From the NCBI RefSeq assembly GCF_050920415.1, contig NZ_CP169309.1: a stretch of 64,000 bases of DNA; one strand, given 5' to 3'. The position numbers were made by a program, and so were the translations under genes. Origin of the DNA: Escherichia coli. Lineage in GTDB: Bacteria; Pseudomonadota; Gammaproteobacteria; Enterobacterales; Enterobacteriaceae. Each line of letters opens with the position of its first letter. Position 1 is the stretch's first letter. This document shows, one piece after another, positions 1-34,680 of the stretch. The notes beneath the pieces are model-generated. The model made no database searches. It had not been told where the DNA came from and saw only the letters and a program-made list of their open reading frames with translations.

Positions 1-1424
1 AGCCATACAGTGATCAGCAGTTAACTGCTGGTGTCAGTGCAGCACTTGGTTTATCAACAATTCCAACCAACACCAAACGCTATACCGGTAATGCAGCATT
101 CGATGCGGCATCTCCTGAGGCGCAGGCAAGTTTTATGCGACAGGCGGATCAACTGCGTCGGCAGCAGCAGGCTGAATATAAAACGATGATTGACAGCCAG
201 GTTCGCGATGCGACAGCTGCGTATATGCGTGGCGTTGAATTTCCTAACCCACCTGGTGAGGCTGATTTTATTGCAGCTTATGGAGTCAGAGAAGGAAAAC
301 TGCGATATACCGAGTTCAGAAATACGCAAATCGCCGGACAGTATATAGGCTCTTTCCGCAACATGCCGACAAGCAGCATTACAGCATATGTTGAGCAATT
401 ACGCCCGGATACTGGTGAGACAGGGGAGGGTTATGCGGCACGAGCCGCTCTTTATGACAACGTTGTGTCGGCTGCAAGTCAGGTGATAAAGCAGCGACAG
501 GCTGATCCTGTACAGTTCTCTCTTGCCGCCGGACAGGCAAAGCCTATCGACATGAGCAATAAGGATAACTTTGGACAGAGCGTTGCCTTGCGTGCTGCTC
601 AGGTCAGTGACCTTGCTAAGTCATATGGCACTCCACTGACGTTCTTTTCCAAAGACGAGGCCAATCAGATCGGTGTTTTCTTTCGTGATGCGCCCGTTTC
701 CCAACAGGCAGCATATCTCGATACCATCAGGCAGAGCACTGGTGGTGGGCAGGTGTATATGTCAGCACTACAGCAGATCAGTGCCAACGCTCCATCTGCT
801 GCCGTTGCCGGGATACTGATGGATAAGCCAGGTGGTATTTTGGCAGAAAAAAACTGGTTTAATCCGGATGTTTCCGTGTCTCCTGAAACCGCTGCGCAGA
901 CAATTCTTGCTGGCGCGGCGGCTCGTAAAGGTACTGATGACGCGAAAGGTATTCCGATGCCTAAAGATGCTGATCTCCGCCTTGAGTTTTCTGACATGGT
1001 GAAGGATGCATTTGCTGGTGATGCTCAGGGGGCATCAATGGCATACGAGATCGCAAAGGACTATTACGCTGGTGTGATGGCGAAAAAAGGCGTGGTATCA
1101 GGCGAAATTGACAATGATATCTGGAAACAGGCTGTTAACGTAGCTACAGGTGGCGTGCATGACTATAACGGAATGGGGAATGTTCTTTTGCCGTGGGGAA
1201 TGTCTGCAGAGCAATTCGATAAGCAGGTTAATCAGGCTTGGAATGAACAAGTTGTTGGCACAGGGATAAAAACACCGCCTGGTCAGTATGGTTTGCAAAG
1301 TTACGGCGATAGTCAGTACCTGGTGAAACTTGGTACTGGTTATCTGCTAAAAGATGATGGTTCTCCCGTTGTTCTTGATCTGACACAGAAGCGTCAGAGA
1401 TTCTCCGGAGATATTCCGCAATGA
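1..1424 (+). CDS. Phage virion internal/ejection-type protein, 5' end outside window
   Basis: Frame 3 is open from base 3 to the stop at 1422-1424 (ORF track starts at the first in-window ATG, 135). Acidic Ala/Gly/Gln-rich product directly upstream of two more large same-strand ORFs and a tailspike; ATGA overlap with the next ORF. Function inferred from position only. Confidence 0.5.
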   Translation, partial: PYSDQQLTAGVSAALGLSTIPTNTKRYTGNAAFDAASPEAQASFMRQADQLRRQQQAEYKTMIDSQVRDATAAYMRGVEFPNPPGEADFIAAYGVREGKLRYTEFRNTQIAGQYIGSFRNMPTSSITAYVEQLRPDTGETGEGYAARAALYDNVVSAASQVIKQRQADPVQFSLAAGQAKPIDMSNKDNFGQSVALRAAQVSDLAKSYGTPLTFFSKDEANQIGVFFRDAPVSQQAAYLDTIRQSTGGGQVYMSALQQISANAPSAAVAGILMDKPGGILAEKNWFNPDVSVSPETAAQTILAGAAARKGTDDAKGIPMPKDADLRLEFSDMVKDAFAGDAQGASMAYEIAKDYYAGVMAKKGVVSGEIDNDIWKQAVNVATGGVHDYNGMGNVLLPWGMSAEQFDKQVNQAWNEQVVGTGIKTPPGQYGLQSYGDSQYLVKLGTGYLLKDDGSPVVLDLTQKRQRFSGDIPQ

Positions 1425-3223
1425 GTTACTTTGGCCTTAATCCAGTAAACCAGAATCAGCAGCTTGACGAAGCAGCATCAAATCCAGCTGGCTTTAACAG
1501 CGATGTTGGTTTTTTCGACAATGCTGTAGGAGCGGCATTGTCTGGTTTGTACTCCGGGCTGGTGGCAAAGCCAGATCAGTTGCTCTGGGCAGGGATGGAT
1601 AAAATCGTATCCCCGATTGCTCAGTTTGTTAACGAAAACACCTCGCTCAATGACACTTCAGTTTCATACATTGCCGAGCAGAGAAAACTAGCAGAGCAGC
1701 AGGTTAAGCGGCTGACGCCTGATGCCGCGACAACCGGAACCGCCGGGCAGGTTCTTTATGGGTTGTTCGATATGGGCGGGCAGGCTGTTATCGGTACAAC
1801 GCTCGGTGGTCCGGCCGGAGGTGCTGCGGCGGTAACTTCGCTACAGGGTTTTTCTGAGTTTGAACGGCTGACAGCACAGGGTGTTGATTTCAGGACGGCG
1901 CAGGAAGCGGGATTAGTGCAGGGTATTACTGCTGGTGCCGGAACAATGATCCCTATGAGCCTCGGGTTACGTGCTGGTGGTGCGCTGGCGGAAGGTGTGG
2001 CGGCTCAGCTTGCGCGGACGGGTGAAAGTTCAGTGCGACGCGCCGCAGCAACAGCAGTAAGTGCAACGCCAGATATTGCCTATGCCGCAGGTACAAATAT
2101 TGCGTTCGGTATGGCACAGCGTGGGCTTACTGCAAAAACGCTTCGTGATGGTGGCTATAGCGAAATGGCTAACCAGTATGATGTGTTGGATCGACAGGCA
2201 ATTGCTATTGATGCTGTTCTTGGGGTGGCGTTTGGTGGTGTCGGCAGATTTATTAACTCTCGCGGCGAGTCTACAAGCGCACCAAATTTTTCACCAGTTG
2301 ATATTGATGCTGCACTGGCGGCGAATGCCGCTCATCATGCTGAAATTGATATTGCGCCCGGCGTGCCGATCAACGTGCTTTCGCGCAATTCTCACATTCA
2401 GGCTCTGCGAAAAGCTATGTCTGATGTTAGCCAGGGGAGACCTGTAGACGTTGCCAGCATTGTTGAGTCTGCATCTTTCAGTGAAATTCCTGGGCGCAAG
2501 AGTCTGCTGTCTCAGGCAGTTAATGAGGCTCTGTCATCTGTAGATGATGGAGTAACGGCGCGCGCTATAGAAAATCGGTTGCTTGAAGAACAGGCCGCGC
2601 AGCTTTTGCCGCGTGGAGATAGACAGGTTTACCAGTCTGAAATCGCTAATAGCCAACGAATTATTGAAAATCTCACTGAACAGCGTGCACAAATTCTTGC
2701 AGAAGAGCCAACCGGTAGCGGTAAAGCTTTGTCTCGTGCTCGATCAGATAAACAGGCCAGACTTCGTGATATTGATCAACGAATCCGGCAGGCACAAGAA
2801 CGCCTGGAATTTTCCCGTAACGCGTTGGCACCGCACGAGCCTGGAGGTCAGTTTTTTGAAGCTCGAGCAGAACTGGCACGGCGACAGCAGGCAGAAAGTG
2901 AACTTAATGCTCAGGCTGTTTCATTCTATAAAACAGCAGAGGTCAGGACGCCAGACGAAGTAGCTCCTTTTGAGCCCGGTAAGATATTGCAACAGACAGA
3001 ACAAAAAATGATGGCAGATCCGGCAGGAGATATTGATCTGCGTATAGCTGAAGACTCGCTGCTTGAATCACCTGACATGATAATCACCGTGCTGGATGAT
3101 GATGGTAATCCACAATCGCGCAGTGCGCGTGAAGTACTGGATGAAGCTAACAGGGAAAGTGAGCAGGCAATACAGGATTCCAGCCTGTTTGATGTTGCTG
3201 TGGCGTGTTTCTTGAGAGGTTAA
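1421..3223 (+). CDS. Phage virion internal/ejection-type protein (600 aa)
   Basis: 600-aa ORF translationally coupled to the upstream ORF (ATGA overlap); Gly/Ala-rich segments and a coiled-coil-like Q/R/E-rich region. No catalytic motif recognised by eye. Confidence 0.5.
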   Translation: MSYFGLNPVNQNQQLDEAASNPAGFNSDVGFFDNAVGAALSGLYSGLVAKPDQLLWAGMDKIVSPIAQFVNENTSLNDTSVSYIAEQRKLAEQQVKRLTPDAATTGTAGQVLYGLFDMGGQAVIGTTLGGPAGGAAAVTSLQGFSEFERLTAQGVDFRTAQEAGLVQGITAGAGTMIPMSLGLRAGGALAEGVAAQLARTGESSVRRAAATAVSATPDIAYAAGTNIAFGMAQRGLTAKTLRDGGYSEMANQYDVLDRQAIAIDAVLGVAFGGVGRFINSRGESTSAPNFSPVDIDAALAANAAHHAEIDIAPGVPINVLSRNSHIQALRKAMSDVSQGRPVDVASIVESASFSEIPGRKSLLSQAVNEALSSVDDGVTARAIENRLLEEQAAQLLPRGDRQVYQSEIANSQRIIENLTEQRAQILAEEPTGSGKALSRARSDKQARLRDIDQRIRQAQERLEFSRNALAPHEPGGQFFEARAELARRQQAESELNAQAVSFYKTAEVRTPDEVAPFEPGKILQQTEQKMMADPAGDIDLRIAEDSLLESPDMIITVLDDDGNPQSRSAREVLDEANRESEQAIQDSSLFDVAVACFLRG

Positions 3224-3786
3224 ATTAAATGAGACAGGAATGTATACAAGCGGTCCAGCAGGCGGCGCAGCGCACGTTAACGGCGCGAGAAATACAGAAC
3301 ATTGAAGACCGCATTTATCGCAATATGCGCTCCATTGCTCGTGATGACCCTATGTCGTGGCGACAACTTTCCGAGTCAGAGCGGCTGTATCGTGCAGCAC
3401 AATTGGCATCTGAAGAATTACAGCGAGAAGCGGCATTAAAGAAACGTCGTGTGGCTCTCACTATAGCTGCACGTCAGAGATTGGATAAATTTATCAATAG
3501 CTATCAAGGGGCTGATGGGAAACTTGGCGCTCTTAACCGTACTATAGCTTTTAATGCAGACGGTAAATCTAATTTCCTCTCTGTTGAATCCAGAACAAAA
3601 GCCACCCGTGATTATGCATTGAGTCAATTGCAGGAGGCATTCGAAGCAGTTGATCCTCGCTTTTTTGGTCTGTTTGAAGATGAAGCGGGCGTACGTAGAC
3701 TGGCCCCCTGAATCTCCAGACAACCAGTATCACTTAAATAAGTGATAGTCTTAATACTAGTTTTTAGACTAGTCATTGGAGAACAG

Positions 3787-4152
3787 ATGATTGATGTCTT
3801 AGGGCCGGAGAAACGCAGACGGCGTACCACACAGGAAAAGATCGCAATTGTTCAGCAGAGCTTTGAACCGGGGATGACGGTCTCCCTCGTTGCCCGGCAA
3901 CATGGTGTAGCAGCCAGCCAGTTATTTCTCTGGCGTAAGCAATACCAGGAAGGAAGTCTTACTGCTGTCGCCGCCGGAGAACAGGTTGTTCCTGCCTCTG
4001 AACTTGCTGCCGCCATGAAGCAGATTAAAGAACTCCAGCGCCTGCTCGGCAAGAAAACGATGGAAAATGAACTCCTCAAAGAAGCCGTTGAATATGGACG
4101 GGCAAAAAAGTGGATAGCGCACGCGCCCTTATTGCCCGGGGATGGGGAGTAA
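3787..4152 (+). CDS. insC: IS2 transposase OrfA (InsC)
   Basis: Translation [41 protein letters not shown]... recognised as IS2 InsC; ORF track starts 15 codons upstream at an ATG within the left inverted repeat. Confidence 0.9.
4104..4110 (+). other. A6G slippery heptamer, putative -1 programmed frameshift site joining insC and insD
   Basis: AAAAAAG at the 3' end of insC inside the insC/insD overlap; IS3-family elements produce the OrfAB transposase by -1 frameshifting at such sites. Confidence 0.55.
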
Positions 4153-5015
4153 GCTTAGTCAGCCGTTGTCTCCGGGTGTCGCGTGCGCAGTTGCACGTCA
4201 TTCTCAGACGAACCGATGACTGGATGGATGGCCGCCGCAGTCGTCACACTGATGATACGGATGTGCTTCTCCGTATACACCATGTTATCGGAGAGCTGCC
4301 CACGTATGGTTATCGTCGGGTATGGGCGCTGCTTCGCAGACAGGCAGAACTTGATGGTATGCCTGCGATCAATGCCAAACGTGTTTACCGGATCATGCGC
4401 CAGAATGCGCTGTTGCTTGAGCGAAAACCTGCTGTACCGCCATCGAAACGGGCACATACAGGCAGAGTGGCCGTGAAAGAAAGCAATCAGCGATGGTGCT
4501 CTGACGGGTTCGAGTTCTGCTGTGATAACGGAGAGAGACTGCGTGTCACGTTCGCGCTGGACTGCTGTGATCGTGAGGCACTGCACTGGGCGGTGACTAC
4601 TGGCGGCTTCAACAGTGAAACAGTACAGGACGTCATGCTGGGAGCGGTGGAACGCCGCTTCGGCAACGATCTTCCGTCGTCTCCAGTGGAGTGGCTGACG
4701 GATAATGGTTCATGCTACCGGGCTAATGAAACACGCCAGTTCGCCCGGATGTTGGGACTTGAACCGAAGAACACGGCGGTGCGGAGTCCGGAGAGTAACG
4801 GAATAGCAGAGAGCTTCGTGAAAACGATAAAGCGTGACTACATCAGTATCATGCCCAAACCAGACGGGTTAACGGCAGCAAAGAACCTTGCAGAGGCGTT
4901 CGAGCATTATAACGAATGGCATCCGCATAGTGCGCTGGGTTATCGCTCGCCACGGGAATATCTGCGGCAGCGGGCTTGTAATGGGTTAAGTGATAACAGA
5001 TGTCTGGAAATATAG
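4110..5015 (+). CDS. insD: IS2 transposase OrfB (InsD), DDE integrase-like
   Basis: 301-aa ORF overlapping insC in the -1 frame; sequence ...[50 protein letters not shown]... recognised as IS2 InsD. Confidence 0.9.
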
Positions 5016-7048
5016 GGGCAAATCCAGTACGTGACCTGGTATATGAAATGCGGGGGCAAAATACTGGCAATGCTAAAGCAAGAAAAGGTGCTAAGGCGTG
5101 GAGAGAAGTTACAGAGCTGCTGCGCCGCCGGTTTAATGATGCTGGTGGGGACATTGGCTATCTCGAAAACTGGGGGATCCCTCAACATCATTCTATGGAA
5201 AAGGTTGGGGCGGTATCAAAGGATAAGTGGGTTAGCGATGTTATAGGTAAGCTGGATCGCAAATATTATATCCGAGCCGATGGACAACTGATGAACGATG
5301 CCGAGTTGTCTGCATTTCTTGGAGAGGCTTATAACACGATCGCTACTGGTGGGCTGAATAAGCTTACTGATACCGGAATGCGAATTTCCGGCGCACGTGC
5401 TAACCGTGGTAATGCATCACGACAGATACATTTCAAAGATGCAGATTCCTATCTGCAATATCAGCAACTTTATGGCGATCGCTCTCTATGGGAAATCATG
5501 GTCGGTCACCTGGAAGGTATCAGTAAAGATATTGCACTGGTGGAAACATATGGCCCAAACCCCGATCATGTTTTCCGCTCTCTTCTTGATCAGGTGAAGG
5601 CAGAAACGGCAACAGCTAACCCGAGTAAAACCGGTAAAGTCGAGCGGCTGGCGAACAACACAGAGAATCTGTACAACTTTATTTCCGGAAAGACACAGCC
5701 TGTAGCAAATCCGCACATCGCGCGATGGTCTGACAATATCCGCAACTGGCTGGTTGCCAGCAGACTCGGATCCGCGTTGCTGTCATCGTTCTCTGATCTT
5801 GGAACCATGTATCTGTCTGCGAAGGTGACCAACCTTCCAATGAACCAGTTATTCCGCAACCAGCTTGAAGCTATGGACCCAACGAACCGTACTGAGCTTG
5901 CGCGGGCGCGCCGCGCTGGTCTGGCGATGGAATCTCTACTTGGCAGCGTTAACCGCTGGGCGATGGATAATATGGGGCCGTCAGTGTCTCGTTGGGCTGC
6001 AACGGCGGTAATGCGTGCCAGTGGGCTTACAGCATGGTCAGATGCGCACAAGCGCGCCTATGGCGTAACCATGATGGGAAGCCTGGGAGAAGTAGTGTCA
6101 CGGACACCAGACCTTCGTAGCCTCGATGACTCTGATTTTCGTATCCTGAAAAGCAAAGGGATTACTGACACAGACTGGAGCGTATGGAAGCTGGCGCAAC
6201 AGGAGGACTGGGGGAACGGTAATAATACGATGCTGACACCGGAAAGCATTATGCGTATCCCTGATTCAGCAGTTAAACATCTTGGTGAGCCTGAACGCGT
6301 GAAATTTGAGGCAATGCGTAAACTGCTCGGTGCCGTAACTGAAGAAGTTGATATGGCTGTTATTACACCGGGAGCACGTGAGCAACTGATAACCGGTTCT
6401 GGTATTCAGCGTGGAACATGGAAAGGTGAATTAACGAGAAGTGTTTTCCTGTTTAAATCGTTCCCTATCTCGGTGGTTATGCGTCACTGGTCACGCGCTA
6501 TGGGTATGCCGTCTGCTGGTGGGCGTGCGGCATATATTGCGACGTTTATTGCCAGCACGACCATTCTTGGCGCTTTGTCTCAGCAACTTAACGACCTTGC
6601 GTCTGGTCGTAATCATCGCGAGATGACAGGAGAAGATGCTGCTAAATTTTGGCTTGGTGCTCTACTGAAAGGTGGTGGTCTTGGCCTTTACGGTGACTTT
6701 TTATTGTCAGATCACACTAGGTACGGAAGCGGCGCGCTGGCGTCGATGCTTGGCCCGGTAGCTGGTCTGGTTGATGACGTAGTGAAGATTGCTCAGGGCA
6801 TACCGTTAAATGCTGTGGAAGGGAAGAATGAGCAGACTGGTGGTGATCTGGTTAAGCTGGGGAAGGGGCTGATGCCAGGTGCGAATCTCTGGTACTTGAA
6901 GGCGGCTCTCGATCACATGATCTTTAACCAGATGCAGGAGTATTTTTCACCAGGCTATTTGCGTAAAATGGAGCAACGTTCGAAGAAAGAGTTTAACCAG
7001 ACATACTGGTGGCGACCACAGGATGTCACTCCGCAATAAGGATGAGAA

Positions 7049-7189
7049 ATGATTGCTTTTATTCTTGTTGTGTTTGCGCTTGTTGCACTTGGCGTTATGA
7101 ACCGTAAATGTATCATTGACGATGGCGAATTTGCTGTTGCAGTTATTTTGATATTATCTGGTGTAGCAGGATACATAGGCTTGTCATAA
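7049..7189 (+). CDS. Hypothetical small hydrophobic peptide (46 aa, two predicted hydrophobic segments)
   Basis: ATG at 7049 preceded by AAGGATGAG 4-10 nt upstream; translation MIAFILVVFALVALGVMNRKCIIDDGEFAVAVILILSGVAGYIGLS; stop TAA 7187-7189; followed by palindromes and a terminator. Too short for the ORF track. Confidence 0.35.
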   Translation: MIAFILVVFALVALGVMNRKCIIDDGEFAVAVILILSGVAGYIGLS

Positions 7190-7209
7190 CGTGAGTGTGA
7201 CATGTCACA

Positions 7210-7233
7210 GGCCGCTTTCGCGGCCTTTTCTTT
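7210..7233 (+). terminator. Rho-independent terminator (GGCCGC-TTTC-GCGGCC followed by TTTTCTTT)
   Basis: 6-bp GC stem with 4-nt loop followed by a T-run on the + strand; preceded by the perfect palindrome TGTGACATGTCACA (7196-7209). Overlaps the stop codon of the convergent minus-strand ORF. Confidence 0.5.
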
Positions 7234-7489
7234 ATGTGGTTTGTTTTCGTAGTTGTTCGGCACAATAGTCGAGATGTGTTTGCAGATCCTGCATAGACAT
7301 CTGTGAGCTGGTGACGTAGTTAATCAGTGCAGTCAGTTCGGCAAGTGGGCCATCGACATTAAATCCATCCTTATCGAGATCCCGGAGTAATTTCATCAAG
7401 TGCGATCCTTCCACCAGTGACCTGACGCCTCCCGGCGTGTGAATCCTTTCGGTAAATCCCTCTTCCAGTGGATAGTGATACTGCTGCAT
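7232..7489 (-). CDS. Hypothetical small acidic protein (85 aa from the ATG at 7489) behind a LexA box
   Basis: ORF track gives 7232..7507 from a TTG; a better start is the ATG at 7489 (MQQYHYPLEEGF...) with GGAGAAG 7 nt upstream. A strong LexA box lies about 20 nt upstream. No family recognised by eye. Confidence 0.5.
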   Translation of the reverse strand: MQQYHYPLEEGFTERIHTPGGVRSLVEGSHLMKLLRDLDKDGFNVDGPLAELTALINYVTSSQMSMQDLQTHLDYCAEQLRKQTT

Positions 7490-7508
7490 CTTATCTTCTC
7501 CATGCAAT

Positions 7509-7528
7509 AACTGTATGTTTATACAGTA
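7509..7528. promoter_or_regulatory. LexA (SOS) box AACTGTATGTTTATACAGTA
   Basis: CTGT-N8-ACAG with an AT-rich spacer, 17/20 match to the E. coli consensus TACTGTATATATATACAGTA; sits in the divergent region between the small minus-strand ORF and the tailspike gene. Confidence 0.6.
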
Positions 7529-7684
7529 TCAAATAATTTGTTTGCTATCCAGCACGTTTTGCGAATCACCTGAAAGGTAATATCTGCTCACATTAACACT
7601 CTTTCCATCCATATATGGTTTTTCAGGTAATAGAATAACCAGATATGCGGCGCAACGGGTGCTGCGACTATCTGGAGATTTAAC

Positions 7685-9940
7685 ATGACGGTCTCAACCG
7701 AAGTTGACCACAACGAATACACAGGCAATGGCGTTACGACTTCATTCCCTTATACCTTTAGGGTTTTCAAGGAATCTGATCTGGTAGTGCAGGTGGTTGA
7801 CCTTGACGAAAATATCGCTGTGCTGGCTCTGGATACTGATTACACTGTCACTGGGGCTGGTGGATATAACGGCGGTAATGTAATTCTGTCGAAGGCGTTA
7901 GCTAACGGTTACCAGATTTCTATATCACGAGAGCTCCCGGTTACGCAGGAAACTGATTTGCGTAATCAGGGGAAGTTCTTTGCAGAAGTGCATGAGGATG
8001 CTTTTGATAAGCTAACGATGCTGATCCAGCAGGTTCGAAGTTGGTTTAGCTTGGCGCTGCGCAAGCCGTCATTCGTGGCAAATTATTATAACGCGCTGAA
8101 CAACTATATTCGAAACCTGAAAGACCCGGTAAACCCGCAGGATGCATCCACAAAGAATTATGTGGACAGTACGGTTTTATCGAATATCGACCATACAATC
8201 CGTGTTCCTGATTCTTATATCGATCCGCTGCCACCTCTCGCTCAACTTGAAGGAAGCATAATCGGCATCGCCAACGGTAAGCCCGTTCCGTTCCCTGTGC
8301 CTTCAGGAACGGCGGCTGACGTATTCAACCAGTTGGCCAGCAGCGCTGACGGGAAAGGTGATGCGCTGATAACAGTGAAGCAGCCTTACCAGGGGGCAAT
8401 TTCTCTTTCGCAGCATATAAAAAATGCACAAGCCATTAGTGTTGTTGATTTTGGAGCGACAATTGATGGAACGCTTCACCCTTTAAGCGAGATATTTTCA
8501 ACACTATCAGCTGCTCAGATGGTATATCCATTTGTTTCATCTCTATCTCAATCTGTTGATTATGCTGCGCTTCAGTCCGCATGTAACACGGGAAAAACAG
8601 TGCTTATTCCAAAGGGAACTGGTTACTATAATTCAACTATTTTTCTGAAAAACTCCGTTAGGATTGTTGGAGAGGGAACTGATACAATAAATAGAGCGCA
8701 ATCATTTATGTCTATTGTTGGTAATATTTCAGCCTTTGCTTTAGATCAAGGTGATTCCCTATCGACAAAAATGATTCAGATTTTTATTGATGGTCTTTAT
8801 ATTTTCTATGATCCAGGAACCACACCAACGAATCCTGAAAATGATGGTGGGAAAATTGCATTTAATTTCTACTCGACAATTCCAAATTCAACAAGCTTGG
8901 AAATGTCTGAAATTAAAAACTGTACAGTTCATGGTGCATGGTCATGCTTTAATGATCAGACTGGCACATACTTGACAAAACTTACGAATGTGTGGGCCAG
9001 AAACTGCCATAATGGTTTTACAAAAGGAACTGGCACTACCATTCTGATGGAAAGATGTTATACATCTGGATGTATATCACCATATCAGTTTGGTTCTGTC
9101 TTTGCAGCTACAATGATTAACTGTGCCATGGATGGATCAAATATTTCGTTAAACGCAGGTTCGCTTGGTGGGGCTGGCGTTCATGTTCTTAACACACATA
9201 GTTTTAACATTATTGGTTTTGATGCGGAGGGTAACACCATCTCTACAGATGGTTATGGAGAGGCAGCACTATTCCATTTCGAAAATAGTAGTGGTGGCAT
9301 TTCTGGCCTGACTGCACATCAGAACAGCATGCGAAGTGTTGCGCCAAGTGATGCTGGTGTAGTTTCCTACATCAGGGCGTCAGGTAGCAGCGATGTTAAA
9401 ATTGAGTCATCAGAAGATGATTTATCTGACACCAACACAGTTGCATATACTGGGTCTGGGTATCCCATCATGCTACATGCAACTGACACAGCTAAAATAA
9501 GCGTCTTTAATAGCAGATTCAGGGCGACTACCACTGGTACCCCTGTCTTAAGTACGCTAAGTACTGGTGATGTATCATGGTATGACTGCCCTAAAAAAAC
9601 AGGACTTATCGTAGATGGTTATTCACAAATAACATCTAAGGAAGGATTGCAAACATCATGCTTCTATACCAGTAAAGGCTCTACTGCTGTTGCTGAAAAT
9701 ACTCCGACAACACTTTTCTCTCTACCAGATTCGCAAGGTACTTACATTATTAGCGTATGGGTGGCTGGAAGCGGAGAAAATTACGCATCTACACAACTGG
9801 CAATGTATGATGGAGATAAGCTAATTCTTGTTGCGTTAAAAATAGCAGCATTTCTTAGTTTTTCAGCAACAGGGAGAATTGTAACCATTACAAGCCAGGT
9901 GGCAGGCACTTTAAACTGGACTTACACTAAAATAGGTTGA
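7685..9940 (+). CDS. Phage tailspike / tail fibre (751 aa), probable O-polysaccharide-specific receptor-binding protein
   Basis: N-terminus MTVSTEVDHNEYTGNGVTTSFPYTFRVF... has the Y-x-G-x-G...F...F signature of podovirus tail-fibre/tailspike particle-binding domains; from memory it resembles epsilon15/phiV10-type tailspikes (unverified). The C-terminal two thirds are visibly AT-rich and Ser/Thr/Asn/Gly-rich, consistent with a beta-helical receptor-binding domain. Confidence 0.75.
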   Translation: MTVSTEVDHNEYTGNGVTTSFPYTFRVFKESDLVVQVVDLDENIAVLALDTDYTVTGAGGYNGGNVILSKALANGYQISISRELPVTQETDLRNQGKFFAEVHEDAFDKLTMLIQQVRSWFSLALRKPSFVANYYNALNNYIRNLKDPVNPQDASTKNYVDSTVLSNIDHTIRVPDSYIDPLPPLAQLEGSIIGIANGKPVPFPVPSGTAADVFNQLASSADGKGDALITVKQPYQGAISLSQHIKNAQAISVVDFGATIDGTLHPLSEIFSTLSAAQMVYPFVSSLSQSVDYAALQSACNTGKTVLIPKGTGYYNSTIFLKNSVRIVGEGTDTINRAQSFMSIVGNISAFALDQGDSLSTKMIQIFIDGLYIFYDPGTTPTNPENDGGKIAFNFYSTIPNSTSLEMSEIKNCTVHGAWSCFNDQTGTYLTKLTNVWARNCHNGFTKGTGTTILMERCYTSGCISPYQFGSVFAATMINCAMDGSNISLNAGSLGGAGVHVLNTHSFNIIGFDAEGNTISTDGYGEAALFHFENSSGGISGLTAHQNSMRSVAPSDAGVVSYIRASGSSDVKIESSEDDLSDTNTVAYTGSGYPIMLHATDTAKISVFNSRFRATTTGTPVLSTLSTGDVSWYDCPKKTGLIVDGYSQITSKEGLQTSCFYTSKGSTAVAENTPTTLFSLPDSQGTYIISVWVAGSGENYASTQLAMYDGDKLILVALKIAAFLSFSATGRIVTITSQVAGTLNWTYTKIG

Positions 9941-9975
9941 TGTTATGCGTGGGGAGCAATGCTCCCCATCATCAA

Positions 9976-11835
9976 TTAAAAAATAAATGGCTTGTCATTT
10001 TTTAATTTTTTCCCAAACTCCCTTGAGCCTTCTAGAGTGAAATGACTATTATCAAAGTAAAGATAATCACCTTTAGTAGAAAGGATGTCACAATTCATTG
10101 ACTTTCCGCACTGCTCGGCAAGCGTATCTATGTATTTATACGAATGCTGGTTGCTACCAAGATAGCCTTTTATCGTATTGTTAATTTCAACTCTACTATT
10201 GTCATAATACTTTTTAGAGTATTTATTTATCCCATCAACTGTGTTTACGCCAGATTTAAAAGCAGACTTAATTATTTCCATTGGCTGTGCCGTAAACTTC
10301 ATCTTAGGCCCAAATACAATAACTTCTCCTTTAGTCCTCTCCTGTATTTTGCCTATAGAGTAAAGCATCCCGAACAGATCGCCAACGCCATAATCATCAT
10401 GAAGGATTATAATGTTAGCTTCAGCTATGGCTGGAGATGAGATTACGTCATTGAATATTTTTTTGCACTTTTCTACATAGGGCATGTCGTTTGGTGTATA
10501 ACCAAAGTTTGAACATAAGTTTGTAGTTCTTATATAAGTTATATCACCCTTCATCCCATTTTCAGTAAGTGCATAAGTCAGATCTATGCCATGAGAATTA
10601 CCGATTATTACTATTTTTTTGTCACCTGTCTTCGGTACAGGGTGAGGCTTGTCTCCATCAACCCAATACCTGTTCATTTGTTCTTTTAGCTGTTCGGACG
10701 TCATTGTGGCAAACGAAAACCTTGATGGAATTCCAGATAGCAATAGTACAGCGAAGCACAAACCAACTACACCACCTACAGGTAGCACGATTGAAGTTAA
10801 TTCATTCAAGGACCTGCCGTTTTTAAATTTTGAAAGTGCCTTTCTTGAAGGGTTTTCAATTAAATAAAATGATGCGGCACCAATAAGAATTGATAAGGCA
10901 ACACCTGATACTGTATAAACCATATCATCCATCTTATTCATTGACATATATACAACTATGGGCCAGTGAACCAGATATACCGAGTATGAAATTTTCCCAA
11001 CCCATTGAGATAATGCATTATCAAGTAATAGGTTATCTTTACATCCAAGATAAATGACAAAGAAAGTAGAAACGACTGGTATTAAGGCAAGATACCCAGG
11101 CCACTTCATTAAGCTGTTAAGCAAGACTATCCCCGATACTGCAAAGGCTATGGCAATCCATCTAAATACAGCAGTGCGTTTTGAATTTTGTATAGTAGGA
11201 AGAAGGTAGGCAAGGCCGCCAGCCAGCATCTCCCAAGCTCTGCTTGACAGAAGATAAAATGCAGCGCCCTGATTATTATAAGAAAGATACACTGAGGCAG
11301 TAAATGATATAATTGCAAGGATGGCAACAACATACCTTATATGCTTAGCGCCCAATAGCTTTGCAATCACCATCATTATGATTGGATATACCATGTAAAA
11401 CTGCCACTCTACAGAAAGCGACCATGTATGAAGAAGCCATTTCTGCTTTGATGCAGTATCAAAATAATCAATGCTATGGTAATACTCAACGTTTGAGAAA
11501 AATAAAAGGCTACTTCTTACGTGTTGAGCCAGGTATTCATATTCAGAAGGTAAAAGAATGAAGTAACCAACTATCAGAACAGCAACTGAAACTACAGTTA
11601 AAGCAGGTATAATTCTTCTTGCCCTATCAAGATAAAATCCTAACAGTGAAAAGTTTCCATTAGATATCTTTGTGTAAATTATTCCAGTCATCAGATACCC
11701 TGATATAACAAAGAATATATCTACGCCTGAAAATCCACCAGAGAACCCTTTGACTCCGAAGTGATAAAGGACAACTGCCATAACAGCAATAGCCCTAAGC
11801 CCGCCTATATCTGTTCTGTATTTTAAAGAAGACAT
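9976..11835 (-). CDS. Membrane acyltransferase-3 family protein with C-terminal SGNH-like domain; probable O-antigen acetyltransferase (OafA/Oac-like)
   Basis: 619 aa; N-terminal R-x10-H motif (RTDIGGLRAIAVMAVVLYH) and about 10 hydrophobic helices typical of acyltransferase-3; C-terminal soluble domain with a GNSH block. Strongly AT-rich gene, convergent with the tailspike. Confidence 0.8.
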   Translation of the reverse strand: MSSLKYRTDIGGLRAIAVMAVVLYHFGVKGFSGGFSGVDIFFVISGYLMTGIIYTKISNGNFSLLGFYLDRARRIIPALTVVSVAVLIVGYFILLPSEYEYLAQHVRSSLLFFSNVEYYHSIDYFDTASKQKWLLHTWSLSVEWQFYMVYPIIMMVIAKLLGAKHIRYVVAILAIISFTASVYLSYNNQGAAFYLLSSRAWEMLAGGLAYLLPTIQNSKRTAVFRWIAIAFAVSGIVLLNSLMKWPGYLALIPVVSTFFVIYLGCKDNLLLDNALSQWVGKISYSVYLVHWPIVVYMSMNKMDDMVYTVSGVALSILIGAASFYLIENPSRKALSKFKNGRSLNELTSIVLPVGGVVGLCFAVLLLSGIPSRFSFATMTSEQLKEQMNRYWVDGDKPHPVPKTGDKKIVIIGNSHGIDLTYALTENGMKGDITYIRTTNLCSNFGYTPNDMPYVEKCKKIFNDVISSPAIAEANIIILHDDYGVGDLFGMLYSIGKIQERTKGEVIVFGPKMKFTAQPMEIIKSAFKSGVNTVDGINKYSKKYYDNSRVEINNTIKGYLGSNQHSYKYIDTLAEQCGKSMNCDILSTKGDYLYFDNSHFTLEGSREFGKKLKNDKPFIF

Positions 11836-11982
11836 AATCGCTATCGTTTTGAGTAAGATGCATTAATGATATCACCTTTAGGGTAATTTCGTTAAGAGTT
11901 ATCCGATCAAATTTAATCCACATATGGTTTATTGTGTATGATGAACTCACCAACTAAGGGGGTTCTTTATGCACAATAAACG

Positions 11983-12396
11983 GTGGTCACTATGGCGCAT
12001 GTGCTGACAACAGAGTCAGTAAATCAGGGGTTAAGCCTGACTGCACTGGCGTCCGTGTTCGTTGGTATACCGCCTGAGGTGGCTTTAGGTGCTCTTGCTG
12101 GTGCGGTAATTTTTGTTACCTCAGCGGTTGAGTATCCGATAAAGCGTAGGTTGCTCCTGGCGCTCCTAAGCTTCCTCTGCGGCGTTCTCTTCTATAAAGC
12201 GACAGCTTCCATTCTGATTGGCTTTGCCAGCCTGATACCAACGATTACGCAGGACTCTTTTGAGAAGGGCATTGTGTATTCCGCCGGGGCATTCGTGTCT
12301 GCAATCGTCGCTGTTCGCATTGGCATCTGGCTGTATCACCGTTCTGAAAATCCGCGCGACATGATCCCGGGGAGAAAAGACGATGACCAGTCCTGA
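11983..12396 (+). CDS. Putative holin (137 aa multi-span membrane protein)
   Basis: First gene of a + strand cluster ending in endolysin and Rz/Rz1; several hydrophobic helices and a charged C-terminus; two closely spaced in-frame Met codons (MVTMAHV). Holin call is positional. Confidence 0.5.
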   Translation: MVTMAHVLTTESVNQGLSLTALASVFVGIPPEVALGALAGAVIFVTSAVEYPIKRRLLLALLSFLCGVLFYKATASILIGFASLIPTITQDSFEKGIVYSAGAFVSAIVAVRIGIWLYHRSENPRDMIPGRKDDDQS

Positions 12397-12676
12397 TCTG
12401 CTTCTCATCCTTAACGCCGCTATCTGCGGTGGCATTGCAATCCGAGTGCTTCTGTTCCGCCGTGACGGGTCACGTCACCGCTGGTGGGGTGGGTGGCTCG
12501 CCTATCTGCTGATCGTCGTGGCAGCCAGCGTACCTATCCGGACTTTCTACGGGTACTACGTCAGCGCCGACTGGTCAGAAGTCATCATCAAAGCCGTGTT
12601 CCTGGCTGCGCTCATCAAGACAAAAGGGAACGTGGTGCAAATTTTCAAGATAACGAGGTCCCAGCATGGACATTAA
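12383..12676 (+). CDS. Putative second holin/antiholin-like membrane protein (97 aa)
   Basis: Overlaps the end of the previous ORF and the start of the endolysin gene; two or three hydrophobic segments; basic C-terminus. Confidence 0.45.
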   Translation: MTSPDLLLILNAAICGGIAIRVLLFRRDGSRHRWWGGWLAYLLIVVAASVPIRTFYGYYVSADWSEVIIKAVFLAALIKTKGNVVQIFKITRSQHGH

Positions 12677-13295
12677 CCAATTCCAGCGTGCAGCTGGCAT
12701 CAGTGAGGTGCTGGCCGCGCGCTGGTACCTGCATATCACCGCAGCCATGAAAGAGTTTGGCATCGAGCAACCGCTGCACCAGGCGATGTTTATCGCGCAG
12801 GTGGGGCATGAGTCTACTGGTTTCACCCGGCTGCAGGAAAACTTCAACTACAGCGTTGCAGGGCTCGCAGGATTCGTCCGCGCCGGGCGACTTACTCAGG
12901 GTCAGGCCAACGCGCTGGGCCGCCGTGCTGGCGAGCCATCGTTACCGCTGGAGCGCCAGCGCGCGATCGCCAATCTGGCGTACAGCAAACGCATGGGGAA
13001 CAATGCCCCTGGTGATGGCTGGAATTACCGTGGCCGCGGACTTATCCAGATTACCGGTTTGAATAACTATCGTGATTGCGGAAACGTCCTGAAAGTGGAC
13101 CTGCTGGAGAATCCTGAACTGTTGGCGCAGGACGAATATGCGGCTCGTAGCGCGGCGTGGTTCTTCGCCAGCAAAGGATGCATGAAGTATACCGGCGATA
13201 TTGCACGTGTAACTCTGATTATCAATGGTGGCCGGAACGGCATCGACGACCGGCGCGCGCGGTACATCACTGCCAGTAAGGTGCTGGCGGTATGA
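12666..13295 (+). CDS. Endolysin, glycoside hydrolase family 19 (chitinase-like lysozyme)
   Basis: 209 aa; motif FIAQVGHESTGF...NYRGRGLIQITG typical of GH19-type phage endolysins; position between holin-like genes and Rz. Confidence 0.85.
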   Translation: MDINQFQRAAGISEVLAARWYLHITAAMKEFGIEQPLHQAMFIAQVGHESTGFTRLQENFNYSVAGLAGFVRAGRLTQGQANALGRRAGEPSLPLERQRAIANLAYSKRMGNNAPGDGWNYRGRGLIQITGLNNYRDCGNVLKVDLLENPELLAQDEYAARSAAWFFASKGCMKYTGDIARVTLIINGGRNGIDDRRARYITASKVLAV

Positions 13296-13774
13296 TCTGG
13301 GCATTCGCAAAAGCATACTGGAAACAGTTGCTTATCGTGGTGATGCTTGCTGTTCTGGTCATATCGGGAATTGTTTCCTGGAATGTACACGGCAGTCGTC
13401 AGTACGATGCCGGGTATGCGCAGGCGAAGGAAGACCGCAAAGCTGAAGATGAGATAGTTCGTCAGCACTACGAACAGGAGAAATCGATCAATGAACGTGA
13501 AGCGCAGCAGAGGATCGACCAGGCGCGCAATGATGCTCTTGATGCTGCCGCTCGCGCTGGCCGGTTGCAGCAACAACTCTTTGCCATCCGTGAGCAGCTC
13601 AGGCAGTATAACGCCATTGTCGGCGCTGGGACGTCAGCCGCAGACACCGGAGTTTTGCTTGCCGACGTGCTCAGCAAATCTCTCGAGAGAAACAGACAAC
13701 TGGCAGAGTATGCTGACCGGGCAGCCGAAGCCGGAAGAGTCTGCGAAAAACAATACGACACCCTGACCAGATAG
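13292..13774 (+). CDS. Rz-like inner-membrane spanin (i-spanin)
   Basis: 160 aa; N-terminal transmembrane helix followed by coiled-coil-prone Q/R/E/A-rich periplasmic domain; ATGA overlap with the endolysin stop; contains an embedded +1 frame lipoprotein ORF. Confidence 0.75.
   Translation: MIWAFAKAYWKQLLIVVMLAVLVISGIVSWNVHGSRQYDAGYAQAKEDRKAEDEIVRQHYEQEKSINEREAQQRIDQARNDALDAAARAGRLQQQLFAIREQLRQYNAIVGAGTSAADTGVLLADVLSKSLERNRQLAEYADRAAEAGRVCEKQYDTLTR
13530..13766 (+). CDS. Rz1-like outer-membrane lipoprotein spanin (o-spanin), embedded in Rz
   Basis: +1 frame ORF wholly inside Rz; from ATG at 13530 the product MMLLMLPLALAGCS... has a signal peptide with lipobox LAGC and a Pro-rich mature part. 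ORF track starts it further upstream at 13491. Confidence 0.7.
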   Translation: MMLLMLPLALAGCSNNSLPSVSSSGSITPLSALGRQPQTPEFCLPTCSANLSRETDNWQSMLTGQPKPEESAKNNTTP

Positions 13775-13884
13775 CATGGCATTTTTCATGGTACTGATTT
13801 CCGGTGACGGTATATAAAACGGTACTAGAAAAATGAAGTTTTGGAAAAATGTTATCACTCAATTGGTTATGATTGTCGTAAATA

Positions 13885-13899
13885 ATTGAGTGGGAATGA
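13885..13899 (+). other. Putative prophage attR core / remnant of the guaA 3' end (ATT GAG TGG GAA TGA = IEWE-stop)
   Basis: 15-nt string encoding the C-terminal residues ...IEWE plus stop of GMP synthase as recalled for E. coli GuaA, in the orientation expected for guaA converging on yfgI; preceded in frame by a stop codon, so it is an isolated gene end, not a gene. Confidence 0.45.
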
Positions 13900-13924
13900 T
13901 TTGATCCCTGCACTATGAATTAGC

Positions 13925-13953
13925 AAAACCCTCTGTTACTACAGAGGGTTTTT
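13925..13953. terminator. Bidirectional rho-independent terminator (AAAA-CCCTCTGT-TACT-ACAGAGGG-TTTTT)
   Basis: Perfect 8-bp stem, 4-nt loop, flanked by A-run and T-run; lies between the guaA-end remnant and the convergent yfgI stop. Confidence 0.65.
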
Positions 13954-13991
13954 ATACTCACGAATCATAGGATTGAAGTTACTGACATCGC

Positions 13992-14531
13992 TTAGTTAAA
14001 CCAGCTGTCCGATTTGTTCTCTTCTGCTTTGCCCACGCTTTTCATCAGATCGCGACCGCCTTCAGTCATATTCCTGTTTGCGTCAGCTTCAGATTGCACC
14101 ACATCGGTTTGCGCAGCTTTGTGCTTCAGTTCCTGATCGATAAATTCGTTTTCTCGCTTAACGCGGGCTTCTTCTTTCGCCAGCGCCAGTTTTTGTTTCT
14201 GAATCTCTAAGCTGCGTAGCTCATCTTCATAACTTTGATCGCGTTTCTTGTCCGCAGTGGCTTCGGCGTCCAGTTTATCCTGACGAGCTTTCTTATTCGC
14301 CGCTGCCGTTGCCGCTCTTTTATTAGCCGCGGCCTGGGCGTTTGCGCGACGTTGCTTCTCTTGCTGGATTTCCCTGTTGCGCTCCGCGACCCATTCGTCA
14401 TGCTGCCTTTGCTCTTCATTTTTACCTTGCTGTTCCGCTTCTGCGACAGCAGAGAGTTGATCCTGCAATGATGAGGCGATAGCCGGATAGCTTAAGGAGG
14501 CTAAGATGGCGCAAAGAAAAACTTTCTTCAT
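13992..14531 (-). CDS. yfgI: YfgI, periplasmic protein (179 aa)
   Basis: Signal peptide MKKVFLCAILASLSYPAIA followed by a highly charged coiled-coil-like region; length and position match E. coli yfgI. Confidence 0.85.
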   Translation of the reverse strand: MKKVFLCAILASLSYPAIASSLQDQLSAVAEAEQQGKNEEQRQHDEWVAERNREIQQEKQRRANAQAAANKRAATAAANKKARQDKLDAEATADKKRDQSYEDELRSLEIQKQKLALAKEEARVKRENEFIDQELKHKAAQTDVVQSEADANRNMTEGGRDLMKSVGKAEENKSDSWFN

Positions 14532-14546
14532 GACTCCTCCTGATTA

Positions 14547-15065
14547 TTAGCTCTTTTCAGGACATTTGGTATTTGGCTGAATACGCGTTTCGTTATACGT
14601 CGTGGTAATAACAACGGCTAAACCTGTCGTAAACTGGCACTCTTTACCCACCTGGGTGGAGGTATACACTTTGGTGCCTTCCTTATACGTTAGAGAAACA
14701 CCTTCCACTAAGGTTTTATCATTCACCATAGAACCTGCTGCCGCGCCAACAGCTCCGCCGCCAACTGCACCTGCCGTCGTTCCGGAATTGCTGCCAGACC
14801 CCACGTTGTGGCCGATAACACCGCCAGCGACTGCACCAATAAGCGCGCCGAAGGCTTGTGCGTTTCGTTTATTTTGGGAGTTGTCTACGGCAACTTTTGC
14901 GGGAAGAATGGAAATAATATTAACGGTTTTAGTTTCTTGTTTGGTATTCAGTTGATCGGTTTGATAAACATCGGCGGCATGATCATCAGCATTTGACTGG
15001 CATCCTGCCAGAGTGAATGACGCTAACATTGCCACAGGCAGAAGACATTTTTTAAATTTCATCAC
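14547..15065 (-). CDS. yfgH: YfgH, outer-membrane lipoprotein with glycine-zipper region (172 aa)
   Basis: Lipobox LAGCQ; Gly-rich GxxxG repeats (GALIGAVAGGVIGHNVGSG...); matches E. coli yfgH. Confidence 0.85.
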   Translation of the reverse strand: MMKFKKCLLPVAMLASFTLAGCQSNADDHAADVYQTDQLNTKQETKTVNIISILPAKVAVDNSQNKRNAQAFGALIGAVAGGVIGHNVGSGSNSGTTAGAVGGGAVGAAAGSMVNDKTLVEGVSLTYKEGTKVYTSTQVGKECQFTTGLAVVITTTYNETRIQPNTKCPEKS

Positions 15066-15375
15066 TATTCCTTGTTATACACATTACGAAAAATAAGACA
15101 TTTAAGATCATCAAAAGAGGAAAGTAAATGTATTGCGTATAAAGGAATAGATTAAATTTATTAAAATTCATGTGGAAAATAATTTATAAAAATACATCAT
15201 TAAAACATATGTATTAATTTTATATTTATTTCGCAGCCAAACAGGATAAACATCAGTCAGGACAAAGACGTAAAATTTAAGATGAAAGAATATCTGCCGC
15301 TTTGATAATCCCAAAGAGCAAAAGCATCCGACAGCGAGGTGCCGTTATGTTCTGTGAAAGTGGAGAAGGTAACCG

Positions 15376-15567
15376 CTAACGTTGTACCGGTGATTCGACG
15401 GAGAGTGTGGATTGCTGAGCTTCTTTTTTGCTCTGATGGTGCTGCCATGCACCGACGGACGAGTAGATAAAACGGCCAAAGAAGAAGATAAAGCTGATGA
15501 GCAGTACGATACGGGTCATGCGACTGTTAAATCGGTGTCGTTTTCGCATACTGGTTGCCTGACTCAC
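15376..15567 (-). CDS. yfgG: YfgG, small membrane protein (63 aa)
   Basis: Translation MSQATSMRKRHRFNSRMTRIVLLISFIFFFGRFIYSSVGAWQHH... matches E. coli YfgG as recalled. Confidence 0.8.
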   Translation of the reverse strand: MSQATSMRKRHRFNSRMTRIVLLISFIFFFGRFIYSSVGAWQHHQSKKEAQQSTLSVESPVQR

Positions 15568-17930: not shown

Positions 17931-18256
17931 TATTTTTTCCAGAGGCGGTCGAACTCCGCCTTCGCAAAATAAGCGGAAGCCTGGCGAAGGATATCGTTAC
18001 TGCGGCGCAGTTCACGATTTTCACGTTCCAGCTCTTTCAGACGCTGACGTTCAGCGGTGGTGAGCCCACCATCACCGCTCCCGGTATCCCTCTCATGCTG
18101 GCGAACCCAGACACGCAGAGTCTCTGGCGTACAGCCAATCTTTGGAGCAATGGAACAAATTGCCGCCCATTGTGAGTCATATTCGCCCTGACTTTCCAGA
18201 ACCATACGAACTGCGCGTTGACGGACTTCGGGGGAAAAACGAGTATTTTTAGTCAT
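17930..18256 (-). CDS. IS3-family transposase OrfA (helix-turn-helix, leucine zipper)
   Basis: 108 aa [57 protein letters not shown]...; ends in an A6 run (plus-strand T6 around 17933-17938) at the OrfA/OrfB junction, the likely frameshift window. Confidence 0.9.
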
Positions 18257-34266: not shown

Positions 34267-34680
34267 TCACGCAATTTTTCTGGCCATCAGATAGATGGCC
34301 GGTTCCTGCACAATTTCATCCAACAGATGAATGAATTGAATGCTACGCGCCTGCCACACAGACGTCGCGTCATCTGCCAGTGGCGCGAATGCCCGGGTCA
34401 ACAGGGCGGTGTGGCTGGCGTCAATAACAATCTCACCAAAGGTCATCACCCCCAGCATCTTACGTCGGGCTTGCTCCTCTTCGACCTGTGCAAGCCAATC
34501 TTCGTATTCCGTCTGTGGGCAGCGGAAGGCGACATTCAGACAATCAATCACGCCAACGTGATGACCGATAGCCAACGAGTAATACATTACCTGGGAGCTG
34601 TGTTCCGGCATCTCGTCGCTACTGGCGATAAATTTTTTTCGCAGTGTCCAGAAAACAATTTCCCCGCACTCCTCAGCCAT
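34267..34680 (-). CDS. hyfJ: Hydrogenase-4 component J (HycH-like maturation factor)
   Basis: 137 aa; position and length match hyfJ. Confidence 0.85.

Follow-up and report, generated by a model that had tools for sequence, protein, structure and literature searches.

A predicted LexA operator and an ortholog of the SPC32H antirepressor gene ant as the very probable SOS input of a Uetakevirus prophage in Escherichia coli

Introduction

The stretch of Escherichia coli DNA analysed here as a whole (64 kb, hereafter the window) contains prophage genes, among which a short ORF on the minus strand lies directly behind a palindrome resembling the operator of the SOS repressor LexA. An important question raised by this locus is what a gene under apparent SOS control is doing among late structural genes, and whether its product is a new kind of effector or a known one that has escaped annotation. 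The question is addressed here from the identity of the product, the organization of the prophage, the quality and conservation of the LexA box and the comparison with induction switches of other temperate phages. The coordinates of the features are collected in Table 1.

Table 1. Features of the ant locus and its surroundings (positions of the window).
Feature	Position	Strand	Basis or remark
IS2-family element splitting the SPC32H_018 homolog	~3703-5026		
46-aa membrane protein gene	7049-7189		tblastn of SPC32H proteins
G+C-rich hairpin just 3' of the ant stop codon	7209-7226	+	hairpin call; kept in SPC32H
ant, 85-aa antirepressor gene, ortholog of SPC32H Ant	7232-7489	-	ORF list, homology; stop codon 7232-7234
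Ribosome-binding site GGAG	7498-7501	-	8 nt before ATG; read from sequence
LexA (SOS) box, predicted	7509-7528	.	+ strand AACTGTATGTTTATACAGTA; ant sense TACTGTATAAACATACAGTT
Candidate ant -10 hexamer TACTGT	7523-7528	-	by analogy with 186 p95
Candidate ant -35 hexamer TGGATA	7546-7551	-	proposed; 17-nt spacer; within conserved block CTGGA(T/A)A
Rep-operator-like palindrome TCACCTGAAAGGTAA	7566-7580	.	between ant and tailspike gene
Tailspike gene, divergent from ant	7685-9940		
O-antigen acyltransferase gene	9976-11835		
Rep-operator-like palindrome	11872-11886		before the lysis cassette
att core ATTGAGTGGGAATGATT	13885-13901		exact match

Results and discussion

The small ORF and its product

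The ORF, here called ant, starts with ATG and encodes a protein of 85 aa with a pI of 5.1, having 12 acidic and 7 basic residues. Its GGAG ribosome-binding site is kept in all ten aligned loci (see below) and the gap between the LexA box and the ATG is 19 nt, so the gene is as first described from the letters of the DNA, that is, an acidic 85-aa minus-strand ORF with a good ribosome-binding site about 20 nt from the box. A longer reading of 91 aa from a TTG at 7507 was rejected: this start lies 1 nt from the LexA box and is unused in relatives, the aligned homologs all beginning at the ATG after GGAG.

The window protein shares 75 of 84 residues with SPC32H_020, the Ant protein of Salmonella phage SPC32H (89% identity, full length; E = 3e-58). 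It also matched chain E of PDB entry 5d50, named 'Anti-repressor protein' (E = 5e-48; residues 2-85 on 3-86), and PHROG 450 (E = 1.6e-47), with a weaker and partial match to phrog_1760 ('anti-repressor'; residues 27-75, E = 5e-7). Homologs in eight other phages of the group were 62-95% identical to the window Ant, the identity being 95-99% with the proteins of active phages of E. coli, among them phiV10, ZX5 and PAS61 (98.8% for the small Ant homolog of ZX5). At the DNA level, megablast of the 1-kb ant region against phage records gave 29 records from E. coli, Salmonella or Enterobacter, including phiV10 and SPC32H, and the feature under the match in the Salmonella phages SPC32H and SPC32N is annotated 'ant: anti-repressor protein'. 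According to tblastn (E <= 1e-3), ant is carried by 35 phage records, all of them E. coli, Salmonella, Enterobacter or Klebsiella phages, with every genus-assigned one, where the taxonomy was inspected, belonging to Uetakevirus; outside those 35 phage records, no match of Ant was found at this threshold.

A Pfam scan of Ant produced an insignificant match to DUF724 and no DinI, Bro-N or KilA-C domain, the NCBIfam scan an insignificant match to UpsF, PADLOC had no match, and Rfam was blank for window positions 1-16000; these searches thus pointed to no other family and to no defence system or RNA element. Ant is represented by no model in Pfam, NCBIfam or PADLOC, which is why the sequence-only reading could not place the ORF. 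Its identity is settled by orthology to a protein in a solved structure: PDB entries 5D50 and 5D4Z belong to the Ant-Rep system of SPC32H, with 5D50 being the Rep-Ant complex. By sequence, size, position and operator alike, the window ORF is a member of the SPC32H Ant family.

The locus is, moreover, already known through its ortholog in SPC32H, whose LexA control and Rep-Ant structural mechanism were reportedly published by Kim & Ryu in 2013 (J Virol) and by Kim et al. in 2016 (PNAS). The notion of an 'undescribed' effector put forward earlier is thus contradicted by the 89% identity to SPC32H Ant, the match to PDB 5D50 and the mechanism reported for that phage. The accompanying guess of an SOS-triggered antirepressor or induction switch was, judging from the same orthology, right in kind.

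The prophage and its gene order

When the SPC32H proteins were searched by tblastn, window positions 3-13771 proved collinear with SPC32H genes 016-027. The order in the window is structural genes, a 46-aa membrane protein, ant, the divergent tailspike gene, O-antigen acyltransferase, holin, endolysin and Rz, and between ant and the tailspike gene neither the ORF list nor the SPC32H tblastn revealed another ORF that has a homolog. The placement of ant between the late structural genes and the tailspike gene had been read correctly from the start. Nine other phages showed the same layout, in which the large structural genes end before ant and the tailspike gene diverges from it. Instead of being 'unusual', as had been supposed, the arrangement is standard for the genus, occurring in 10 of 10 aligned loci, and the genus-assigned ones among the 35 records that carry the gene are, where the taxonomy was inspected, Uetakevirus; LexA-associated ant is, as judged from the ten loci aligned, the norm in Uetakevirus.

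The att core shared by phiV10, epsilon15 and ZX5, whose integration site lies at the 3' end of guaA (PMC9782041), is present exactly once in the window (Table 1), and the window therefore covers the right-hand part of a Uetakevirus prophage at this guaA-3'-end site. The prophage is classified as epsilon15/phiV10-like Uetakevirus and not as P22-like. For this reason, the parallel drawn earlier with the immI hot spot between gene 16 and gene 9 of P22-like phages is an analogy only, the close DNA and protein matches being E. coli, Salmonella, Enterobacter and Klebsiella phages with the genus-assigned ones in Uetakevirus.

Compared to SPC32H, also a Uetakevirus, with its Ant-Rep-LexA switch, the window is alike in Ant (89% identity, same size), in gene order, in the divergence of ant and tailspike gene, in the distance of the LexA box from the start codon and in having the same operator-like palindrome in the ant-tailspike spacer. 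The differences concern the host (Escherichia or Shigella-like as opposed to Salmonella), the spacer of the box, which is reverse-complemented, the C-terminus of the tailspike and the acyltransferase, which are swapped, the IS2 element in the upstream structural gene and the Rep type of the E. coli relatives, which is 42% identical to that of SPC32H.

Because the homolog of SPC32H_018 is interrupted by the IS2-family element, the prophage may be defective, and its induction perhaps without productive outcome. The junction between IS2 and the structural gene was found in no complete E. coli genome, the best match of the ant region among these genomes being 95-98% over near-full length. A second element, of the IS3 family, lies just outside the prophage.

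These insertions lend some weight to the view that the locus is a relic, i.e. an intact-looking module in a dead prophage where LexA controls ant but Ant has no partner or productive consequence, since Rep would be missing or mutated or virions could not be made. Neither rep nor int is present in the window, which also speaks for this view. On the other hand, the ORF, the ribosome-binding site and the box are all intact, the box outscores those of the nine aligned relatives in the approximate index given below, and Ant is nearly the same as in the active E. coli phages named above (95-99%). We consider a relic unlikely; being a matter of current usefulness and not of identity, it is compatible with the reading of the locus as ant with its LexA operator.

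The LexA box and the regulatory region of ant

Of the 20 positions of the 20-mer in front of ant, 17 agree with the E. coli LexA consensus TACTGTATATATATACAGTA. The bare CTGT-N8-ACAG motif is not rare by itself, there being two in the 64-kb window against 0.93 expected. A heterology index based on 20 SOS boxes of E. coli, rough and approximate in its absolute values, was 1.9 for the box in ant sense and 3.3 on the + strand, as opposed to 10.3 for the second-best LexA-like site in the window. Chance was controlled with 300 simulated 64-kb sequences having the dinucleotide statistics of the window: none reached an index of 3.3 or less, the mean of their minima being 10.8 and the lowest about 6.4. 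The approximate values of 1.9-3.3 fall inside the range of the 20 genuine SOS boxes or are better. Overall, the site combines a CTGT-N8-ACAG palindrome, AT-rich in its spacer, with a low index (rough in absolute terms) and a putative promoter position; it is an exceptional sequence, the best LexA-like site of the window by a wide margin and a predicted operator. The strong SOS box claimed in the sequence-only reading is thereby confirmed by the consensus match, the simulations and the distance from the next site, the scoring of the 20-mer by heterology index, proposed there as a check, having placed it far below that site.

The ant-tailspike spacer was aligned for ten phage loci from E. coli, Salmonella, Enterobacter and Klebsiella (six non-Klebsiella and four Klebsiella). 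In all ten, ant diverges from the tailspike gene and a box lies upstream of ant; it is at the same place in SPC32H, phiV10, epsilon15, Tyrion and BUCT554. Among the six phages of E. coli, Salmonella and Enterobacter, no change was seen in the half-sites TACTGT and ATACAGT, in contrast to the 8-nt spacer, which varies; such a pattern is expected of a palindromic protein-binding site under selection. The window spacer ATAAACAT is the exact reverse complement of the SPC32H/epsilon15 spacer ATGTTTAT in gene sense. All six non-Klebsiella boxes score as good LexA boxes by the approximate index. In the four Klebsiella loci, CTGT of the left half-site is replaced by ATGT, which makes the site weaker.

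A counterpart is the annotated LexA operator of promoter p95 upstream of tum in coliphage 186, TACTGTATGTTTATACAGTA, which is identical to the + strand of the window box at 19 of 20 positions. In 186, the LexA box opens with the annotated -10 hexamer, which makes up its first six bases, and there are 18 nt from the end of the box to the start codon, so that p95-tum and ant have the same geometry of box, ribosome-binding site and start codon. From this analogy and from conservation, a promoter with -10 TACTGT and -35 TGGATA is proposed for ant as an inference, the block CTGGA(T/A)A around the latter being kept in 10 of 10 aligned loci; a generic sigma-70 consensus scan of 7150-7720 gave no promoter at its threshold. 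Wherever the exact hexamers lie, the ribosome-binding site is inside the 19-nt gap between box and ATG, so the transcription start must be inside the box or further upstream, and bound LexA would therefore block ant.

On the other side of the gene, the hairpin just behind the ant stop codon is followed by a T-run on the + strand and should therefore terminate the converging late transcript; in the ant direction it has no T-run. The epsilon15 and phiV10 records annotate a terminator at the equivalent place.

A second palindrome is located 37 nt upstream of the LexA box. Its motif is TTACC-N5-GGTAA; when one mismatch at most was allowed, SPC32H had 18 copies, the expected number being 0.65. Three of the copies are situated between rep and cro, another three immediately behind rep, and further ones precede several operons. 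The window has seven copies against 1.0 expected, including the one before the lysis cassette, and the same motif appears in the rep-cro region of E. coli phage PAS61. In the epsilon15 record, the site equivalent to 7566-7580 is annotated 'protein_bind repressor, lysogeny'. We take these palindromes to be putative Rep operators, and the one next to ant most likely serves the divergent tailspike promoter.

The proximity of this Rep-operator-like site, together with the ATGT of the Klebsiella left half-sites, might be taken to mean that the 20-mer is not a working LexA site at all; the sequence would then serve as a promoter element or bind some other factor, and ant would be Rep-controlled or constitutive. 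This is very improbable. The box has its 17 of 20 matches to the consensus and 19 of 20 to the operator of a known LexA-repressed phage gene, and its half-sites remain invariant over three host genera while the spacer drifts. Moreover, secondary literature lists SPC32H among the phages that use LexA for induction (PMC7380047; PMC9437464).

Mechanism of the switch and its relation to other antirepressor systems

The preferred reading, held with high confidence, is that the locus consists of ant and its LexA operator and forms the SOS input of the Uetakevirus lysis-lysogeny switch, working by the SPC32H mechanism. LexA control of ant and the disassembly of Rep by Ant are taken from the SPC32H literature. 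In an undamaged cell, a dimer of host LexA on the box would keep ant silent, because the occupied site overlaps or directly abuts the ant core promoter. After DNA damage, RecA* would drive the self-cleavage of LexA, and ant would be transcribed and translated. As outlined in a review, LexA self-cleavage leads to the synthesis of Ant, which inhibits the repressor by protein-protein contact (PMC7380047, citing Kim & Ryu 2013 among others), and a statement in another article places SPC32H among the phages using host LexA to trigger the lytic cycle (PMC9437464, citing Kim & Ryu 2013). The 85-aa Ant, as a tetramer, would then bind the prophage repressor Rep, which has HTH domains besides, via the Rep C-terminal domain and take apart the Rep tetramer, the DNA-binding form, leaving dimers with poor affinity for DNA. 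This agrees with brief accounts in which Rep binds DNA as a tetramer that is broken when tetrameric Ant binds two Rep dimers (PMC9638917), and in which the C-terminal domain of Rep is responsible for tetramerisation as well as for the binding of Ant (PMC9986798). Finally, the T(T/C)ACC-N5-GGTAA Rep operators scattered over the phage genome would be released and the lytic genes expressed. We infer that the same steps operate in this IS2-disrupted, E. coli-type copy; the orthology, synteny and conserved, high-quality box observed in this work make the same mechanism by far the most likely one here.

The logic is that of 186 Tum, in which a LexA-repressed small gene likewise encodes a product inactivating a non-cleaved repressor. 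However, 186 is a P2-like myovirus, differing from the window's prophage in phage family and in the genomic position of the gene, and Tum has a DinI-like part according to its annotation, a domain that Ant lacks. Membership of Ant in the Tum/DinI family was rejected, since BLASTP of Ant against 186 Tum showed no similarity (E = 0.31) and Pfam found no DinI domain. One review loosely calls these Ant proteins 'homologous' to Tum (PMC7380047).

GfoA/GfhA of Gifsy-1/Gifsy-3 and Tum of Fels-2 in Salmonella are further LexA-controlled antirepressors acting by protein contact (Lemire et al. 2011, PMC3121763). According to a passage of the same review, the Gifsy/Fels-2 antirepressors can act in trans on other prophages (PMC7380047).

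In the immI region of P22 (ant, mnt and arc, between gene 16 and gene 9), an antirepressor gene is likewise situated among late genes beside the tailspike gene. The P22 Ant protein is larger and unrelated to the window Ant. An immI system (Ant/Mnt/Arc with an Ant of ~300 aa) was rejected for the window, as there is no P22-like backbone, no Pfam domain and no extra ORF with a homolog next to ant on the tailspike side. The regulation differs as well: the review describes ant as controlled by Mnt and Arc, not by LexA, and P22 as SOS-inducible without ant (PMC7380047).

A potential source of confusion is the Bro-N 'anti-repressor' of related phages (phiV10 p23 and ORF4 of vB_EcoP_ZX5), which belongs to a protein family different from Ant. 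In phiV10, ZX5, Tyrion and a Klebsiella prophage, the small ant is directly followed by the Bro-N gene in the same orientation; in the window and SPC32H this gene is absent, and ant is followed by the 46-aa membrane-protein gene and a terminator. Overexpression of ORF4 pushed ZX5 toward lysis (PMC9782041). A Bro-N/KilAC-type antirepressor was rejected as the identity of the window ORF, with no Pfam domain and only a partial match to phrog_1760.

That Ant is instead a new SOS effector without a repressor role (toxin, division inhibitor or RecA modulator), an idea prompted by the small size and acidity of the protein and by its blank Pfam and NCBIfam scans, is hardly credible for a near-identical ortholog of a protein crystallised with its repressor, an orthology that effectively refutes it, and the toxin and RecA-modulator alternatives raised earlier are without support in view of the missing DinI or other Pfam domain, Tum similarity (E = 0.31) and PADLOC match.

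The Rep partner and possible crosstalk between prophages

A search of the 64-kb window with the SPC32H proteins gave no match to Rep or integrase; judging from synteny, rep is expected some 18 kb left of window position 1. Full-length Rep homologs are present in 36 phage records, which nearly coincide with the 35 ant carriers, and one is found in every related E. coli phage whose Ant is 95-99% identical. The E. coli-type Rep, of which phiV10 p40 is an example, matched chain A of PDB 5D50 (E = 4e-42).

The Rep proteins of E. coli Uetakeviruses and of SPC32H are homologous over their full length but share only 42% identity, compared to 89% for Ant. The groupings are also discordant, the Salmonella Rep being nearest to the Klebsiella Rep (64%) and the Salmonella Ant nearest to the E. 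coli and Enterobacter Ants, so that across Uetakeviruses Ants of 79-95% identity pair with two Rep types about 42% identical. The most conserved C-terminal residues of Rep form the patch I-YD---Y--LP--EK-KI-----F---QN. Taken together, these observations suggest that Ant targets a conserved surface. A bolder idea, which we regard as doubtful, is that Ant might be a broad-spectrum, trans-acting SOS trigger that recognizes the conserved C-terminal patch of Rep whatever the immunity type. In that case, an IS2-crippled prophage such as this one could still use its LexA-controlled Ant to induce heteroimmune Uetakevirus prophages or incoming phages in the manner of the Gifsy crosstalk. No direct test of an E. 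coli Ant or Ant-Rep pair was found in the literature; one regulatory study of an E. coli Uetakevirus, ZX5, tested the Bro-N-type antirepressor instead (PMC9782041).

Recognising ant would explain the DNA-damage response of E. coli phiV10-like prophages, including those of O157 and other pathogenic strains, and flags a possible SOS-dependent route of crosstalk between prophages. The practical value of the present assignment is in the annotation of the E. coli copies. In the ZX5 study, the small Ant homolog was left as a hypothetical protein (PMC9782041), and ant is annotated in the same way in the E. coli phage records inspected. Among complete E. coli genomes, the 1-kb ant region was matched in 535 of 5,426, and the features under the matches in the listed RefSeq records were mostly 'hypothetical protein'.

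Relationship of Ant and Rep and exchange of modules

The similarity patterns of the antirepressor Ant and its target, the repressor Rep, disagree across the genus (Ant alignment A3, Rep alignment A2). Between the E. coli and Salmonella phages Ant is 89% identical, as against 42% for Rep, and the nearest relative of the Salmonella Rep is the Klebsiella protein (64%). This discordance indicates that the late and early regions have been swapped as modules, and it prompts the question what keeps Ant and Rep specific to each other. The window tailspike resembles that of SPC32H in the N-terminal 218 aa only (70% identity), and identity between the acyltransferase and SPC32H Oac is just 32%. Both the receptor-binding module and the module for O-antigen modification have been exchanged, which suggests that the O-antigen specificity of the window prophage differs from that of SPC32H.

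Regulatory sequences around ant

T(T/C)ACC-N5-GGTAA palindromes were strongly enriched: SPC32H has 18 where 0.65 would be expected, and the window has 7 against an expectation of 1.0. They cluster in the rep-cro spacer and ahead of late operons. The motif probably serves as the Rep operator, in which case the tailspike and lysis promoters would be under direct Rep control.

In gene sense, the LexA box has the 8-nt spacer ATAAACAT in the window versus ATGTTTAT in SPC32H, epsilon15 and 186 tum, the former being the exact reverse complement of the latter. The palindrome centre seems to have been flipped round; template switching at the inverted repeat is one way in which this could have happened. 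The second-best LexA-like site of the window lies within the nudK coding region, has a score in the random-sequence range and is probably due to chance.

The window also carries a perfect palindrome directly preceding the terminator hairpin; its central 12 bp, GTGACATGTCAC, are kept in SPC32H, and it could form a second hairpin or serve as a protein-binding site. Several relatives (phiV10, ZX5, Tyrion and a Klebsiella prophage) have a Bro-N-type 'anti-repressor' gene that follows the small ant and shares its strand; in ZX5 an ash-like gene also lies downstream of ant. The window and SPC32H are without the Bro-N-type gene. The LexA-controlled promoter could drive its co-transcription with ant. 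The ZX5 study examined the Bro-N protein alone (PMC9782041).

Coordinates of the features discussed
Feature	Locus	Position	Details
SPC32H_018 homolog, two parts	window	3229-3702, 5027-7036	SPC32H_018: 824 aa
IS2-family insertion sequence	window	3703-5026	ORFs 3742-4152 and 4110-5015
Palindrome TGTGACATGTCACA	window	7196-7209	14 bp; hairpin at 7209-7226
LexA-box spacer comparison	window; L001; L012	7511-7526; 2123-2138; 2047-2062	
T(T/C)ACC-N5-GGTAA copies	window; SPC32H (L002)	7566-7580, 11872-11886; 33528-33680, 34390-34451	among others
Tailspike	window	7685-9940	
Acyltransferase	window	9976-11835	
att core ATTGAGTGGGAATGATT	window	13885-13901	
Second IS3-family element	window	17043-18256	minus strand; ORFs of 295 and 108 aa
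EAL-domain ORF	window	18321-19475	384 aa
LexA-like site AACTGTATATGTCGCCAGGC	window	63044-63063	approximate index 10.3
Bro-N-type gene	phiV10 (L003)	1271-1652	
Bro-N-type gene	ZX5 (L013)	1955-2769	
Bro-N-type gene	Tyrion (L005)	1273-1652	
Bro-N-type gene	Klebsiella prophage (L009)	1270-1646	

State of the prophage and its host flank

An IS2 copy interrupts the SPC32H_018 homolog, and the prophage is therefore probably defective. The junction between IS2 and this structural gene was absent from all complete E. coli genomes of the collection, and the element is only ~97% identical to E. coli IS2 copies. The right end of the prophage is marked by a sequence identical to the published att core of phiV10, epsilon15 and ZX5, a site placed at the 3' end of guaA (PMC9782041). 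Beyond it lie host genes for a YfgH-like lipoprotein, an EAL-domain protein, AcrD, NarQ, AegA and NudK. A 384-aa EAL-domain ORF adjoins a second IS3-family element and may be truncated, since it aligns only with the C-terminal parts of longer phosphodiesterases. The number of IS elements suggests that the host is Shigella-like or some other Escherichia rich in them.
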